NCBI GenBank assembly: GCA_002256025.1
Contig: NKIB01014181.1
Location: 1-46,508, forward strand
DNA: 46,508 nucleotides
Direction: 5' to 3'
From: Asterionella formosa
Taxonomy: Eukaryota
Shown: piece after piece, positions 1 through 8,112 of the stretch
Layout of the letters: every line of letters begins with the position of its first letter
Position numbering within the stretch: the first letter of the stretch is position 1
The notes under the pieces: model-generated
Told to the model about the DNA's origin: nothing
The model's database searches: none
What the model saw: only the letters and a program-made list of their open reading frames with translations
Made by a program: the position numbers and the translations under genes

Positions 1-1
1 T

Positions 2-3000
2 CGCAACGAAATCCACTTTGCAAATAACAGTTTTGGGGAAAAGGTCAATTCTCTGCATCAAATTGACAAGGAACGCATGATCGTGGACGAGAGCAAAGCT
101 GTTGTCCCTTCGTCGTCATCTGACCTTGTTTTGCAGGGTAAGTCCAAGATTTCACAATTGGAGCGACAACTAAAAGAAATGAACGAGATGAAGGATGACT
201 TGATTTTGAAGAATGAGCGCATTTCTGCTCAGTGGAACGAGGATATAGCAGCCAAGAAAATATTGATGCGGCAGCTCAAGGAACACAAGCAAAAGGCAGA
301 TTTCATGACCTCGAGTCAAGATTGGATGAAGCGCAGAATTAAAGAGCTTCATGATGCACTTATTAACTCGCAGAATGATCTTGAACAACTAAAGTCCTCA
401 TATGTATCTTGCAATGGCAAACTCGTAGCTGCAATGGAGTGGGCGTCCAAGCAGAATGCCATGTCCGAGAAATACAAGATGCATTTCGAGACAGCAATGT
501 TGGCTTCGAATGATGGTGAGATTGAAGCAGTCACACTTCAAGGCGTGGTTGATGCTTTACAGAGAACAAATGAGGAGCATCAAGCTTCTATTGAGAAGTT
601 GAAAGTCGACCTTCAGCTAAAGCGTGAGACACAAAAGGCAACTGCGGTTGTCATTGCTGAGTTGAAGACAGAACGTGATCAGTTTCATGACCAATGTAAG
701 GTAATACAAGTCTCACTGGCTCAGGAGACCAAAGCATGTGAGGCGCTCAATTCCGAGCTTTGCAACCAGAACCTCAAGATAGCAGGTTTACATTCAGCAT
801 TATCGGAACAGCAAGCCATTTCCGAGAGCTACAAGCTGCAATATGAAACGGCCTTGAAGACGAATATCGAAGGTAGAATTGAAGACACGACCCGCAAGAG
901 TGTTTCCGAAGATCTGAAAAGAACAAATGAAGACTTGATCTCTTCGATCGAGTCATTGAAAGAAAATCTTAATGTTGAGCGTGAGAGGCAGAAGGCGAAT
1001 CGGGAGGTCATCACTGCGTTGGAGACAGAACACGTCCAATTGCTGGATGAGTGTAGGCAAGTGCAAGTCGCGTTGGCTCAGGAAACCAAAATTAATGAGG
1101 CGCTCAAGGCTGAGCTTCAAAGTCAGAATGGCAAGTTGACAAAGCTGCATTCTGCGCTATCTACCATGGAACAAGATGTTAAAGTGCAAGTATCTACTCG
1201 AGATAGCATCATCAATGAATTGAAAGTGATCATAGTTGACCATGCTTCCAGGGAAGAAAAGCAAATATCGAAAGAGAATGATGTGCGTGTTCACATCAAC
1301 TCTCTAAACGATGACATTGAAAGGTTGAAGTTTTCATATGTCAGTTGCAATGATAAGCTTGCAGCTACTTCGGAGCGAAATGACGAGCGTCAAGCTCAGA
1401 TAGATCAACTCAACGCTACAATGAAGGTTGAGCGTGAGAGGCAGAAGGCGAATCGGGAGGTCATCACTGCGTTGGAGACAGAACACGCCCAATTGCTGGA
1501 TGAGTGTAGGCAAGTGCAAGTCGCGTTGGCTCAGGAAACCAAAATTAGTGAGGCGCTCAAGGCTGAGCTTCAAAGTCAGAATGGCAAGTTGACAGAGCTT
1601 CATGCTACGCTATCTACTATGGAACAAGATGTTAAAGTGCAAGTATCTACTCGAGATAGCACCATCAATGAATTGAAAATGATCATAGTTGATTATGCTT
1701 CCAGAGAAGAGAAGCAAATATTGAAAGAGAATGAAATGTGTGTTCAAATCAACTCTCTAAACGATGACATTGAAAGGTTGAAGTTTTCATATGTCAGCTG
1801 CAATGACAAGCTCGCAGCTACTTCGGAGCGAAATGATGAGCGTCAAGCTCAGATAGATCAACTCATTGCTGCAATCAAATTCACAGAAGAGCGTTGCATC
1901 AAGTACAGTGATGAGCTTGGGGAAACCCTGCAAAAGCTTGAAAAGGTTGAAATGGAAAAGACTGACTTCGAAAACAGGCTTTCTCGGGCTGAAAATGAAT
2001 TGAAATTCCAAACTGATAGGTTTTCGGGATATCAAGAAACAGTTGACAATCTAAAGTCATCATGGTCTACTAGCGCAAGACTGGTAGAAGACGAATTGGC
2101 GACTTTGAAACTAGAACATGGCAACGATGTCTGTCAAACGACAGAAACGTTGATTCGCTTCACCAACGAACTGACTGATGCTAGTTTCCTTACATTCAAG
2201 TCGCTTCGCCAAGCTGGTGTTGTGTCATCACGAAAGATCCCCCAAATTTTGCAGGCTGGCGGGGACTCGAATGCATCCCGCTGGAAGCGAATTCTCGCCG
2301 ATGCCTCAGAAGAACTGGTTATCCTTAAGGACCTTGTCGTCACAAGTTGTGATACACTCAACAGTCAAACCGAAAAGATCCAGGAGCTGGAAGCGTTGGT
2401 CCAGACCACAGACCGCGATTTGAAGCGACAGCACGATAGTAAAGAGCAGTTGGAATTTGACTTGTTGCGAGAAAAGTCTCGAGTCGTTGAGCTCACTGAT
2501 CAACTCCGCGAAGCTGGGGAAGAGTTGATCCGGGCAGTGAGCGAACGTGACGGGATCGGCAGGAAGCTGTCCGAAACAAATGATGGTTCTAACAAGCAGG
2601 GACATGTTCACATTGAGTCGACAATTAAAACTCTGGAAGGTGAACGAGATTTGGCCCTGCAGAATGAAATCAAAGCTAGCTCACTTGTCGCTTTCTTGAC
2701 CGAAAAGTTAGAGAAATCTGCACGGATTCTGTAAGTTCTGCCTGGAGTTGCAATTCATACAATTGTTCTTGTTTTTGTCATATATATGAATGTTTTCTAA
2801 TATTTATGCTTCTTCTCCATCACGTAAAAATAATTAGGTCAACTCTAGAAACAAAGCTTGACGAAACGGAAGCAATGTTAGAAGAGCAGGGAGCTACAAG
2901 TCTAGACCTCCATACTCAAAACAATGTTTTGGAACACAAATGCAGTCGGTATAGAGAGTACATTCAAAAGCTTACTGCCAAATGCGATGAGTGGGCATCA

Positions 3001-3090
3001 AGTTATGCCAAACAAGCGCGTGCGATCCATCAACGCATGCAATCGCCAATGTCATCTGCTGGGAATGGGACCCCGTATGATAGATTCTAA
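2..3090 (+). CDS. Long coiled-coil protein with internal tandem repeats, probably 5'-partial; exons <2..2730 and 2838..3090
   Basis: The frame is open from base 2 to the ATG at 77. The sequence is E/K/Q/L heptad-rich. A GTAAGT donor at 2731 and a TAG acceptor ending at 2837 join CT|G in frame to ORF 2806..3090. Confidence 0.8.
974..1865 (+). repeat. Intragenic tandem duplication, 453-bp (151-aa) period, two near-identical copies
   Basis: GTTGAGCGTGAGAGGCAGAAGGCGAATCGGGAGG starts at both 974 and 1427. The peptide VERERQKANREV...ERQAQIDQL occurs twice. Confidence 0.95.
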
Positions 3091-3127: not shown

Positions 3128-3647
3128 TTAGTCGTCTTGTTTCTTCAAAGCTTGTTGTACCTTGGTCACACCTTTATTCCATCCATCAATGATGGGATTC
3201 GAAGGATTAGCGACCATGGACTTGGGTAGGAAATGACCAAAAGAAGTGGTGAGCTTCCAAGAACGCACAGACGCCACAGCACAACGTCAAGAACAAGAAC
3301 TAACAATGAGCCAACCTACCGCGTCGTTCTTGCCTTGTGAAGGTCTCATCTGGGCCCACATGGTTTGGAATTCGTGTTCTGCATATTCTGTTTGCGCATG
3401 TTGTTACATTGTGCGTACGCATGAATGATATTGTGAGTGTGCCAGGTAGTTTACTGTGGTTGATGCCACACTGTAGCTGACGCCACTGGATGTTGATGCA
3501 TGCCATACCAATACATACTTATTACATACCTCGCAGGGGCCACTTTTTGGAAAGCCGACTTCGATGCGAAAGCTGTTGATGCACGAAGAGGAAGCCGCTA
3601 CCAGAAACTAGAGATCCAACGAGGAAGGATGGTACGTGAATCCACAT
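3128..3647 (-). CDS. Small single-TM protein, MICOS MIC13/QIL1/Mic12-like; exons 3647..3530, 3387..3320 and 3220 (or 3253)..3128
   Basis: Spliced product: MWIHVPSFLVGSLVSGSGFLFVHQQLSHRSRLSKKWPLREYAEHEFQTMWAQMRPSQGKNDASMVANPSNPIIDGWNKGVTKVQQALKKQDD*. Donors are GTATGT and GTAGGT, acceptors CAG and AAG, and the frame is kept. It has a Gly-rich N-terminal TM and a C-terminal DxWNxGV motif. Confidence 0.7.
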
Positions 3648-4971
3648 TATTCTTGAACTTGCGCAACAATGATGGAGATCTTTAAAGAGCAATGGTATGG
3701 ACGATGGGAGGAGTGATGTCAGATTCAATAATACTTCCTCACAGATAACTATATGCTTAGTGTGGTGAGTAAAACTGNNNNNNNNNNNNNNNNNNNNNNN
3801 NNNNNNNNNNNNNNNNNNNNNNNNNNNNNNNNNNNNNNNNNNNNNNNNNNNNNNNNNNNNNNNNNNNNNNNNNNNNNNNNNNNNNNNNNNNNNNNNNNNN
3901 NNNNNNNNNNNNNNNNNNNNNNNNNNNNNNNNNNNNNNNNNNNNNNNNNNNNNNNNNNNNNNNNNNNNNNNNNNNNNNNNNNNNNNNNNNNNNNNNNNNN
4001 NNNNNNNNNNNNNNNNNNNNNNNNNNNNNNNNNNNNNNNNNNNNNNNNNNNNNNNNNNNNNNNNNNNNNNNNNNNNNNNNNNNNNNNNNNNNNNNNNNNN
4101 NNNNNNNNNNNNNNNNNNNNNNNNNNNNNNNNNNNNNNNNNNNNNNNNNNNNNNNNNNNNNNNCATACCGATAGTAAGATCATTGTTATTTTTTGTAACC
4201 TCATCTATTGAGCACTTTAAAACTGCTACATTAGTAACATCAGTAATGTTTGCCAATAAAGGTCCATTTCATTCCAATACACAAGGAACAACTGGACAAA
4301 AAGGGCAAATACAAGGAGTGTGATATTCTTTCAACATAGAAGGGTTTACAACTTCCAATTCAAGGTCAGTCTTATATGGCTGATCGCAATACAGAATTGC
4401 TTCTGTTTTGGAAAACAAGTTCATCCAACTCATTGGCTAGCTACTAGTTTGCACTATACCTTGTATTGTTGTTTCTGGCACAGGGTCAGCCTTCGATTGC
4501 ACATTCTGACCTGCCCCTAGCATGGGATTGCAAATAGGAGGGCATCTTGAATTGTTGCTTGCCCCTCAATACATCATCAGCTCCAGATTGGATCTAAATA
4601 TTAAACTTCCAAACTTTTCGAATTTTAATGCAGATCAAAAATCCTTTTTCTAAAATTCTTTTTTCTGTATTCTTCACTTGCTTTGTTTGTTTACTGGTAG
4701 GTTTCAGGAGGCTCTGTTGATAGTCAAGAACATTAAGTATGGATGAAAAATACAATGTAGCTGTCTTCTTGTGGGTTATTGGGGCCCCAAATGACAATTA
4801 CCAGCTAAATATTGATTGCAAAAGCATACAGAAGTAAGCTAAAATGAGATGCACATATGAGACTCTGATTATTTTAATCGGCTTTTGACATCTATAAAGT
4901 ATGGTGCACTGTTGGAATGTATTTTCAAACACTCTTTATTTGCATCAACAAATGAATTCTGTTTCTCGCTA

Positions 4972-5787
4972 TCATTTCACACTTGAAATGGTTCCAGCTG
5001 GGGTAATTAACTGCAACAGTGCCTTGGCTGCTGGTAATTCCCAACATTCATCATAAAAGAAAACTTGGTAGCCGTCAGTTTCGTTTTCCGCCTGTCGAAA
5101 CCAAAATTTGGTTCTTCCAATAACATCAATCCTTGGCTTCCAAGGCAAGCCAGTCAAATTTCCCACCATATTCCATCTACTTTGCACATATTCAGTGGTT
5201 ATCTCAATAGAAAGTAGGTCCGATCGGCAGTTCCCTGGTGGAATCAACGCTTGCACAATGGGTCCTAGATTCTGAACATTGGAAACAAACTTGTCCCTCC
5301 CAATAAAGGAGAGTGTGGGATCAGTAAATCGGCAGTCTGGTGCAAATGACGGCAAATCAATATTGCCTGTCCACAAATAATTCTTTTCGGTATAATCCTC
5401 TCGAATGCGCTCCATGAGTTCCATTGGTGTTTGTGGTGGCAATGGGTCTGTTGTTGTTTTTGTTGTTGTTGTTCGACGAATGGAGTCGTTTTGTCCAAAG
5501 ACAGTGTTGACCATGTTGGTCAGAACAGAAACAATGCCTTTGAAGGATCCATCTGTCTCGTTGTAGGAGGATATCTGAAGAGGAGGATCAGTATATGCTG
5601 TATTCTTGTCGCCATCACTGCTGTGAAGATGTACCATGAGGGAAGGCAATCGTGGACGGTTCCGAGATGATTGGATCCGCCTCTTTTGTCGTATCATGAA
5701 ACCAAAGCATTCACATGTCAAGGTATGATATGCCAAGCCAAGAAGTAGAGTTGCCAAAATCGTGAGAGAAGAGCCGTGGAGGATCAT
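4972..5787 (-). CDS. DUF2358 / NTF2(SnoaL)-like protein with probable bipartite plastid presequence
   Basis: Core EDYTEKNYLWTGNID..FAPDCRFTDPTLSFIG...WKPRIDVIGRT. A hydrophobic signal peptide ending CEC-F is followed by an Arg/Ser-rich transit-like stretch. Confidence 0.75.
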   Translation of the reverse strand: MILHGSSLTILATLLLGLAYHTLTCECFGFMIRQKRRIQSSRNRPRLPSLMVHLHSSDGDKNTAYTDPPLQISSYNETDGSFKGIVSVLTNMVNTVFGQNDSIRRTTTTKTTTDPLPPQTPMELMERIREDYTEKNYLWTGNIDLPSFAPDCRFTDPTLSFIGRDKFVSNVQNLGPIVQALIPPGNCRSDLLSIEITTEYVQSRWNMVGNLTGLPWKPRIDVIGRTKFWFRQAENETDGYQVFFYDECWELPAAKALLQLITPAGTISSVK

Positions 5788-6057
5788 CTACAGAAGCCGC
5801 TTCACAGCAATATCATTTTCATATTGAAAGTGCTGCTTATTGGGACACTTCTGCTTCCTATTATACCATTTCCGTATAAAAGTTAAAAATAAGAATAAAG
5901 AAATAATAGTAGGAGTACATACATATGCTCATGATTAACAGAGGTCCTTCGCTCCTTCCAGTTCCATCCAAGCTGTAAGCCCACTGTAAGCAACAAAACA
6001 ATAATCATCACAATCACAAGATCGCACAACCACATCTCTATATAACTACTATAGTTC

Positions 6058-8112
6058 ATGCTCCGCTCAAGAGACATTGTCGCAGTCCTAGTTGCCGCCT
6101 GGCTGGTTCGAATGGCATGGAAGGATGACCAGGACTTTCTTTCCGCTTCCATTCATTTGGCCTTTTACACCTACGGCAACGGCAATGCTGTGGCACCCAT
6201 GGACGTCGATGGTGATGGCACCAACGAGGGATTGGCTCTGGCGGTTGCAACACACAATAAAACCCAATGGCAGATGGAAATTTTGGACTTGAAAAAGCTG
6301 CACCATCACGGAAATGGAGTGGGCAGCCCCTTCCGACCTCCCGCCATGGTTTCTAGTTCGTCCATTGTCACTGAGGCAAATCCTATCAAGGTGGTGACGG
6401 GACAACTCATACCGGCGTTGAAAGAGAAAGAGAAACCCGTGGTCAAGCTGACTCCAATCGACGAATCAGTCTTTAATGAACGAACGAGGCACTACTTTTG
6501 CGGAGTAGACTGGAAGGATGCATCGGACAACTGTCGTCAACCATGTCCGAAAGGAACTGCGACGGAATGCCCGGATGGAGAAAAGTGCTATGCAGACACG
6601 GCATGTAACGCCTTGGATAAAATTCAACAGCCAGCAAAGGCTGAGTCTGACCTGATCTTGACACCTGCGGGCGGATTGCCTAGCATAGTCTCCCTATGGT
6701 CGGATGGAAAGGTCCGGATGCATTCATTGACTGCTGATAAAGGAGCCACCAGCTTGGAGTTAAGATTAATGTGGACTCAAGATGTAGCTCTCGAGGTATT
6801 TTCAGAACACGACCTGCTCTTGGCCAATGATATCGTCATTGTTGGAGGAACAAGTTCGCCGAATGCCATTGTGGTTGCCTTTAACGCACTCACAGGGGAC
6901 GTCCTTTGGAACACCAAGGACAACGCCGTCATCAAAGCACAAGACGAACGCAAACGACGTGGATCTACATCCTTTGCTAGACGTCGATCAAGGATTATTA
7001 GTCAGACTGAATCAGCCGCCGATTCCTCATTGCCAAGTTGCTGGGCTGCCTTTCGTCATTCCCTCTTGGAAAGTGGATTGCCTCATTCCTACTGGGGACC
7101 CAGGGATGCCACGTGGACAGCAGTGCATCTAAACAAGACACCAAAACCCAAAAAGATGAATCAAAAGCACAAAAAATGGCACCAACGCCATCATCGTCGA
7201 GGGCCCATTCATGGAAAACCCAATGCCCTCTTGAGTCACTCACAGCAAGGCATCCTTGTACGATCGTTAAAGAATGGAAGGCCCCTATGTCATTTATCCT
7301 TGCTGGACCATGTATTGTATGGTGATTTGAATCATGACGGGACGTTGGATCAACTCCAGGTAGTGACAGATGATAGTGATAGAGGAGATGGAGGCGATGA
7401 ATGGGTTGCGCGGTTAGCACAGCAGGTGGCCAACCAAGACATTGACAGGAATGCGACAAAGCGACTGGTTAGTTCCAATAGACTTTGTCATGTACTTGCC
7501 CTCTCGGGGCTGCCAGCCAGAGAAGAGTTGTTCAGTGCAAACCTATGTGGACCAGGGTTCTCAAGGGACTTTGGAGATCATGAATCGATCCCGCTAATCC
7601 CAGCTCCGCCAATTGTGGTTGGAGAGAAGGAAGTCATGATCGCCTTGTCCAATGGCATGGTGAGCAAATATAATACCGTCACGGGAAAGCCATTGTGGAA
7701 TATGCACGGACAAAATATTTTAGAAGATTTTCCAACCTGGGGTCGTCGGAGTACTGTTGCACATACAGCTCAGATTGGAGTCATGAAGGCACCAAATGCA
7801 CCGCCCCCTATTTTGCTGGCTGGCGAGTCCTCCATGGTTTTGCTCAGTGCAGTAACTGGTCGAATTATGGCATCTGGTCACTTTCCGCAAATATCGCAAA
7901 CAAGGCCTATTTTGGCAGATTTAACGGGGGATGGAACTACTGATATAATTATTGCTACCAATGACGCCCTGTGGGGATACCAAGTGATTGTACAATCAGG
8001 AGCATCTGTTTTGTTTCGCATTCTAACGGGTCTGCTGCTAATGGGCATGGCCCTTGCGCTATTGAGAAATCGTTTTGGACAGCGTTCTGACAAACGAAGT
8101 ACTGACGAATAG
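6058..8112 (+). CDS. FG-GAP/beta-propeller membrane protein (plant NERD1-like) with inserted Cys-rich module
   Basis: Ca-binding FG-GAP-type loops DVDGDG, DLNHDG and DLTGDGTTDII. The N-terminal MLRSRDIVAVL anchor and a C-terminal TM helix match the plant FG-GAP family architecture. Confidence 0.75.
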   Translation: MLRSRDIVAVLVAAWLVRMAWKDDQDFLSASIHLAFYTYGNGNAVAPMDVDGDGTNEGLALAVATHNKTQWQMEILDLKKLHHHGNGVGSPFRPPAMVSSSSIVTEANPIKVVTGQLIPALKEKEKPVVKLTPIDESVFNERTRHYFCGVDWKDASDNCRQPCPKGTATECPDGEKCYADTACNALDKIQQPAKAESDLILTPAGGLPSIVSLWSDGKVRMHSLTADKGATSLELRLMWTQDVALEVFSEHDLLLANDIVIVGGTSSPNAIVVAFNALTGDVLWNTKDNAVIKAQDERKRRGSTSFARRRSRIISQTESAADSSLPSCWAAFRHSLLESGLPHSYWGPRDATWTAVHLNKTPKPKKMNQKHKKWHQRHHRRGPIHGKPNALLSHSQQGILVRSLKNGRPLCHLSLLDHVLYGDLNHDGTLDQLQVVTDDSDRGDGGDEWVARLAQQVANQDIDRNATKRLVSSNRLCHVLALSGLPAREELFSANLCGPGFSRDFGDHESIPLIPAPPIVVGEKEVMIALSNGMVSKYNTVTGKPLWNMHGQNILEDFPTWGRRSTVAHTAQIGVMKAPNAPPPILLAGESSMVLLSAVTGRIMASGHFPQISQTRPILADLTGDGTTDIIIATNDALWGYQVIVQSGASVLFRILTGLLLMGMALALLRNRFGQRSDKRSTDE

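Follow-up and report, generated by a model that had tools for sequence, protein, structure and literature searches.

The minus strand of Asterionella formosa contig NKIB01014181.1 between positions 3128 and 3647 raises the question of whether three short exons there form a real gene and, if they do, whether its product is the small MICOS subunit called MIC13 (QIL1) in animals and Mic12 (Aim5) in fungi. The window analysed is the whole stretch of 46,508 nucleotides of this contig. A first-pass annotation, made from the letters of the DNA, had proposed a hidden three-exon gene for a protein of 92 or 103 amino acids. Sequence alone gave no unique model, 431 GT/AG two- or three-exon combinations reaching the same C-terminal frame; the exon–intron model given below is fixed because RNA contigs join the introns.

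3648..3777, minus strand: probable 5' UTR, without an upstream ATG, extending up to an assembly gap; a spliced contig of run X1 reaches 3777
3647, minus strand: ATG, start of the three-exon gene
3530..3647, minus strand: exon 1, 118 nt; codons 1-40, with the start codon, the predicted transmembrane (TM) segment and the SHR...W motif
3388..3529, minus strand: intron 1, 142 nt, GTATGT...CAG, GT-AG, phase 1
3320..3387, minus strand: exon 2, 68 nt; codons 40-62, with the central helix and the start of a variable linker
3221..3319, minus strand: intron 2, 99 nt, GTAGGT...AAG, GT-AG, phase 0
3128..3220, minus strand: exon 3, with the end of the linker, the WN motif, the amphipathic helix and the stop codon

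The joined frame of 279 nt encodes 92 amino acids plus the stop, and this protein is present in the protein collection as P0001. In the family alignment the equivalent methionine is also the start of the homologues. The gene is single-copy in the assembly, where its own three exons were the sole matches. The contigs cannot give the true 5' end of the transcript. A gap of Ns at positions 3778-4163 of the window lies directly upstream of the probable 5' UTR and hides the promoter.

Parts of the stretch are contained in 16 RNA runs, eight of which were compared with the gene model. In the first set (four runs from three studies) the 3220/3320 joint was found in all four runs and the 3387/3530 joint in three, the contig of the fourth stopping at 3389. 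In the second set (four runs from four studies) intron 1 was joined in three runs and intron 2 in two; run X10 joins intron 2 as 3221/3323 with two other letters, a strain difference at the joint, the contig of run X9 ends before intron 2, and run X7, from a related strain, is unspliced across both introns and represents DNA or pre-mRNA. The ends of the skipped segments read CT..AC on the plus strand, and therefore the strand of the gene is given as well. The junctions predicted beforehand from the letters, 3529/3388 and 3319/3221, are thus present in RNA, each intron being joined in six of the eight runs, and the three-exon gene is real and expressed. The two proposed lengths fared differently: the 92-aa form is the one found in the RNA contigs, whereas the 103-aa form is unsupported, because its acceptor at 3254 was absent from all eight runs (contigs drop rare variants). 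Neither the level of expression nor rare isoforms can be read from RNA contigs, and the source sample may be among the best-matching runs. When the differences common to X7 and X10 were taken as those of the related strain, four of six coding changes proved silent; the other two replace residues 66 and 71, both of which are variable columns of the alignment. As for the word hidden, it is true of the ORF track but not elsewhere, because some diatom genomes already list orthologues among their hypothetical proteins.

The main features of the 92-aa protein are the following.

3582..3635, minus strand: a single TM helix, predicted for residues 5-22 and containing G-S-x-x-[SA]-G; from hydropathy, family conservation and the model helix 5-32
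3540..3569, minus strand: residues 27-36, S-[HY]-R-x-R-L-[ST]-x-K-W, a basic motif directly following the TM segment; from conservation in the diatom family
3176..3181, minus strand: Trp76-Asn77, the WN motif; WN is present in 38 of 41 aligned members
3140..3196, minus strand: C-terminal amphipathic helix, residues 71-89; from the model and the hydrophobic moment

P0001 contains one hydrophobic segment, predicted to be a TM helix, and with its 92 residues it lies within the layout of the Mic12/MIC13 superfamily (animals, fungi, putative plants), about 85-120 aa with one N-terminal TM helix. The hydropathy of the segment is moderate (best 19-residue Kyte-Doolittle mean, 1.46; family median, 1.45; range, 1.20-1.79). 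Basic residues stand after it and not before it, with a net charge of +4 over residues 23-40, and there is no N-terminal basic presequence. A cleavable signal peptide was considered and is unlikely, as invariant residues sit inside the hydrophobic segment; this judgement comes from conservation. A structure model computed from 41 sequences (mean pLDDT 75.7, pTM 0.33) contains helices at residues 5-32, 37-53 and 71-89 joined with a low-confidence linker, the packing of the helices not being fixed by the model. For residues 72-86 the hydrophobic moment was 0.57, a value reached by 20 of 5000 shuffles; the two traits that had first drawn attention to the protein, a Gly-bearing hydrophobic N-terminus and an amphipathic helix following the WN, are thus both present. 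In P0001 the central helix has a moment of 0.20, which 2993 of 5000 shuffles reach, and so shows no amphipathicity above chance; the family median for this helix is 0.42, a value obtained without a shuffle control.

A search with a six-sequence profile yielded 114 relatives (cluster representatives) at E<=0.001. We aligned 41 near-full-length members, with a median pairwise identity of 33%, and left out 77 which were truncated, extended or carried intron read-through. All 38 rows covering these positions have H4, S7 and G11, and L20 is kept in 39 of 40; S27 occurs in 40, R29 in all and W36 in 40 of the 41 members. The D-x-W-N motif described in the first-pass annotation held in its second half, the C-terminal Trp-Asn being conserved as counted above, but the Asp two residues ahead of it was found in only 3 of 41 members. 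In the TM segment, G11 and G16 occur together in 32 of 38 rows and G11xxx[GAS] in 34 of 38, in the form of GxxxS or GxxxA (34/38); strict GxxxG was found in none of the 38 at the aligned G11xxxG15 position and in one of 38 anywhere within residues 5-24.

For 31 of all 118 family proteins the best match stops between profile positions 35 and 44, and for 30 of them between 55 and 64; a Gly occupies the intron 1 position in 31 proteins. From these sequence comparisons we infer that in other diatoms, too, the two introns were probably read through, and that many family records are mis-called in this way. One record, P0068, is 384 aa long and carries a family member (residues 291-380) behind an NFACT-R domain; it is probably a gene-calling fusion of neighbours.

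Nineteen family clusters were looked up and five of them carried an organism label: Chaetoceros, Cylindrotheca closterium, Fragilaria crotonensis, Trieres chinensis and 'Psemu1', which we take to be Pseudo-nitzschia. Odontella aurita is a further named member, and all the named genera are, on our understanding, diatoms. No non-diatom was named among the labelled clusters, most members being without a name. The protein had been called a stramenopile member of its family; this was too wide, as it holds for diatoms but no other stramenopile was identified. Among the named proteins returned by the profile searches none was from a fungus, an animal, a plant or a stramenopile other than a diatom, and because of this there is no chain of intermediates leading to a known Mic12 or MIC13. 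Of 1204 candidates in a second round of homologue search, based on the alignment of 41 members, 26 were kept, again with no named non-diatom; this round is a weak test of the range because shared five-residue words were needed.

The relationship to Mic12/MIC13 was then a matter of remote similarity. Pfam QIL1 matched 7 of the 118 family proteins at E<=1 and was the most recurrent family, no other matching more than two. All seven matches were among the 41 near-full-length members and none among the other 77; the members are related, and the seven are therefore not independent. The best of them reached 20.1 bits (E=0.00096). In 19 further family proteins, five matched QIL1 (best 21.5 bits, E=0.00036), four of the five being close kin of the earlier matches. 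The QIL1 cut-off of 26.6 bits (PF15884) was reached by none of the 137 family proteins, the best standing at 21.5 bits. Full-length P0001 gave no QIL1 match in Pfam, and for the reading frame of exon 3 the sole Pfam match was QIL1 (E=0.16), on exon-coded residues. AIM5 (PF17050; cut-off 26.8 bits) matched none of the 137 at E<=1. We do not file the family under PF15884 or PF17050, because neither cut-off was reached and the strict GxxxG was missing. A bacHORMA_2 match of P0001 (E=0.027) recurs in no other member and was rejected.

In the ESM Atlas, the neighbours of P0001 were an unnamed fungal cluster (0.82), MIC12/AIM5, ranking second (0.81), and QIL1 (0.81). The Cylindrotheca member P0112, 35% alike to P0001, had plant hypothetical proteins at 0.87 and 0.83, MIC12, again in second rank, at 0.86 and QIL1 at 0.80. 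Because all these scores are below 0.9, a level which shuffled proteins reach about one third of the time, we treat the neighbours as leads only. The structure search of the Atlas returned no MICOS row. A PDB sequence search with the family profile gave four matches at E<=10, the best with E=0.029 and each of them a helical look-alike, and Foldseek with the three-helix model (pTM 0.33) gave one, at E=5.1; these were rejected.

We also compared P0001 by eye, without statistical control, with the sequences printed in the available part of Table S5 of PMC10952624. Animal MIC13/QIL1 (human MICOS13; PF15884) has the same small size, one N-terminal Gly-bearing TM segment, a central helix and WN followed by an amphipathic helix. 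Ungapped identities between human MIC13 and P0001 number 6 of 16 over P0001 residues 11-26 and 7 of 14 over residues 74-87. In the TM block human MIC13 reads GSVAGG, P0001 GSLVSG and Arabidopsis At2g28430 GSALTG; in the WN block the human, yeast and Arabidopsis proteins read DSWNAGI, DIWNEQI and WNKAV, and P0001 DGWNKGV. The distance from the Gly to the Trp is 69 residues in human MIC13, 65 in P0001 and 69 as the family median (range 56-80). The three-helix model of P0001 also matches the layout described for MIC13 in the accessible text of PMC13419807 and PMC13510689. Unlike the animal proteins, the diatom family has G-S-x-x-[SA]-G instead of strict GxxxG, almost no segment before the TM helix and a shorter tail after the WN helix, adds the invariant SHR...W motif and scores under the Pfam cut-off. 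According to the accessible text of PMC11667180, both the strict GxxxG of human MIC13 and the WN, the latter for bridging, are essential.

Fungal Mic12/Aim5 (S. cerevisiae Mic12; PF17050) is, by eye, of the same size, with an N-terminal TM segment and WN near the C-terminus, and the TM segment of yeast Mic12 reads GxxxS rather than GxxxG, as in the diatom family; in contrast, there is no match of the AIM5 HMM in the 137 diatom proteins, and little identity is visible outside the WN. The putative plant Mic12, At2g28430, shows G-S-x-x-x-G in the TM segment, basic residues after it and WNKAV against WNK[GA]V, but it differs in a shorter Gly-to-Trp spacing (49 by eye), a GxxxG lying upstream and the lack of SHR...W. 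Land-plant clusters without a name, which may be the At2g28430 family, head the Atlas neighbours of P0112. The MICOS membership of At2g28430 is an in-silico assignment, as given in the part of PMC7050145 available, and the link of Mic12 to MIC13 is itself held by profile-profile comparison (PMC4968808, available text).

Taken on these comparisons of sequence, the evidence for kinship with Mic12/MIC13 is convergent but sub-threshold. The likeness noted at the outset is borne out by the recurrent sub-threshold QIL1 matches and the MIC12 and QIL1 neighbours in the Atlas, but not by any Pfam cut-off or a strict GxxxG; splicing in RNA and conservation of the WN, both named beforehand as tests, turned out in favour of the first-pass annotation. 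We consider it likely that P0001, a diatom microprotein, is a divergent homologue of Mic12/MIC13, the small bridging subunit of MICOS, and the original interpretation finds support in this part, though below the Pfam threshold.

The presumed partners are encoded in the genome on other contigs. Mic10 is an intronless gene for 82 aa (DUF543, E=3.2e-10) at L001:1465-1710 (minus strand; G000:C13171), and Mic60 was recognised by its mitofilin domain (E=1.5e-30) at G000:C2677:4630-5517 (plus strand; L002); their presence is necessary, not specific, for a Mic12/MIC13. A complex prediction with two Mic10 copies and P0001 scored 0.00 in both runs, in which alignments were not used and the fold of the partner was uncertain, so that the outcome speaks neither for binding nor against it; published attempts to model the human Mic10-Mic13 pair with AlphaFold3 ran into trouble as well, as described in the available text of PMC13510689 and PMC13419807. 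No solved relative of Mic10 was matched, and a metagenome scan for Mic10 relatives gave one locus in 11 of 64 parts scanned. Searching the genome with the QIL1 and AIM5 HMMs found nothing, a null that is uninformative because short exons break up the gene and the control for QIL1 was itself without a match anywhere; a genome search for ApoO (Mic26/27) gave no match and is likewise uninformative.

For the human protein, a preprint that combines modelling with in vitro binding tests of fungal proteins describes, in its available text, the TM glycine motif packing on TM1 of Mic10 and the WN region meeting Mic10 and Mic60 (PMC13419807). By analogy with human and fungal proteins, the TM helix of P0001 would lie in the inner membrane, and the part of the protein towards its C-terminus would be in the intermembrane space. 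The face of small residues G11/S15, together with S12/G16, would pack on the Gly-rich TM segment of Mic10 in place of the animal GxxxG, and the WN helix would contact Mic10 and the mitofilin region of Mic60. Again on the human and fungal model, the two MICOS subcomplexes would thereby be linked at crista junctions. SHR...W, an invariant motif, may be a diatom-specific contact for a partner or lipid.

Small size and a single Gly-bearing TM segment are typical of respiratory-complex subunits, and P0001 fits on both counts, so that it might belong to a diatom respiratory complex (the membrane arm of complex I, or ATP synthase) as an unrelated small subunit or assembly factor, with a WN helix acquired by convergence. 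It is consistent with this that every QIL1 match is under the cut-off and that a plant DUF1138 cluster, which we take to be an ATP synthase subunit, stands at Atlas rank 18 (0.75) for P0112. At2g28430 was also first seen co-migrating with complex I (PMC3671202; bioRxiv 2020.07.30.222745, both in the text available), although co-migrating proteins may belong to separate complexes, as PMC3671202 itself allows in the same part. We nevertheless regard this explanation as unlikely: none of the subunit families of complex I or ATP synthase recurs in the 137 proteins scanned, no solved subunit of these complexes matches the family profile at E<=10, and the paired match of TM and WN blocks at the spacing of MIC13 would be left unexplained.

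A slightly smaller chance belongs to a true Mic12/MIC13 homologue which no longer bridges MICOS in diatoms and whose SHR...W motif serves another partner. The strongest conservation does lie in the diatom-specific residues H4 and S7 (38/38), R29 (41/41) and W36 (40/41), which are not seen in the three reference sequences printed in the available part of Table S5 of PMC10952624, and the GxxxG is missing. However, the WN with its reported role in bridging (PMC11667180, available text) is kept in 38 of 41 members, the genome encodes both Mic10 and Mic60, and the TM segment of yeast Mic12 also reads, by eye, GxxxS. A moderately hydrophobic N-terminal TM segment followed by basic residues is the classic pattern of a signal anchor. 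This pattern (hydropathy 1.46, then +4) and the lack of a basic presequence would suit a protein that has nothing to do with MICOS and is held by a signal anchor in the mitochondrial outer membrane, a membrane of the plastid envelope or the ER, but such a protein is no more probable than the preceding one, since the conservation within the TM segment (H4, S7 and G11 invariant; L20 39/40) suggests a packing surface and not a mere address, the QIL1 and MIC12 leads would stay unexplained, and the printed plant reference At2g28430 is, by eye, also basic after its TM segment.

With P0001 read as a divergent Mic12/MIC13, its place in the literature can be considered. In the literature searched, much of it available in part, we found no report of a diatom or stramenopile Mic12/MIC13; Huynen et al. 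2016, Urbach et al. 2021 and preprint supplements could hold an entry. A search by terms in the accessible text of PMC12989075, PMC13644384, PMC7900873 and bioRxiv 2026.01.29.702055 gave nothing on stramenopile Mic12. As far as Table S5 of PMC10952624 was available, its Mic12 row is filled only for yeast, human and Arabidopsis, and its Mic10 row appears blank for stramenopiles; the negatives of this table are weak, because the A. formosa genome does have Mic10. In the available texts, QIL1 was called animal-only (PMC4802753), a putative plant Mic12 was reported and none in Andalucia (PMC7050145), and accessory MICOS subunits are treated as opisthokont features (PMC8633786, PMC13530016), the second of these, a 2026 review, stating that opisthokonts acquired them. 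On the age of these subunits the papers disagree: a proposal cited in the accessible parts of PMC7050145 and PMC10952624 dates Mic12 to the last eukaryotic common ancestor and rests on the putative plant homologues.

We lean slightly towards the view that the family is the first Mic12/MIC13 from the SAR supergroup, and that diatoms would have a Mic60–Mic10–Mic12 core in which a lineage-specific SHR...W clamp accompanied the loss of GxxxG. A SAR Mic12/MIC13, if true, would make a third supergroup and would tip the balance on the age of the accessory MICOS subunits. It would extend a known complex without a new mechanism, and would provide a name for a family carried in diatom genomes as hypothetical or mis-called genes. 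The diatom profile could also serve as a bridge to the Mic12 of other protists; a search for it in Andalucia had failed (PMC7050145, available text).

The genes neighbouring that of P0001 are unrelated. To the left, a convergent gene with coiled-coil-like matches occupies positions 1-3090 of the window (plus strand) and ends 37 bases from the stop of the P0001 gene; RNA contigs run across the ends of both. An intron of the left-hand gene at 2731-2837 (GT..AG) was joined in two of four RNA runs. The same region contains a direct repeat of 300 nt, 95% identical, at 971-1270 and 1424-1723, 453 bases apart, which is either an internal duplication or an assembly artefact. To the right lie a DUF2358 gene at 4972-5787 (minus strand, E=5.8e-08) and, head to head with it, a gene with FG-GAP/PQQ-type repeats at 6055-8112 (plus strand, E=2.9e-06).
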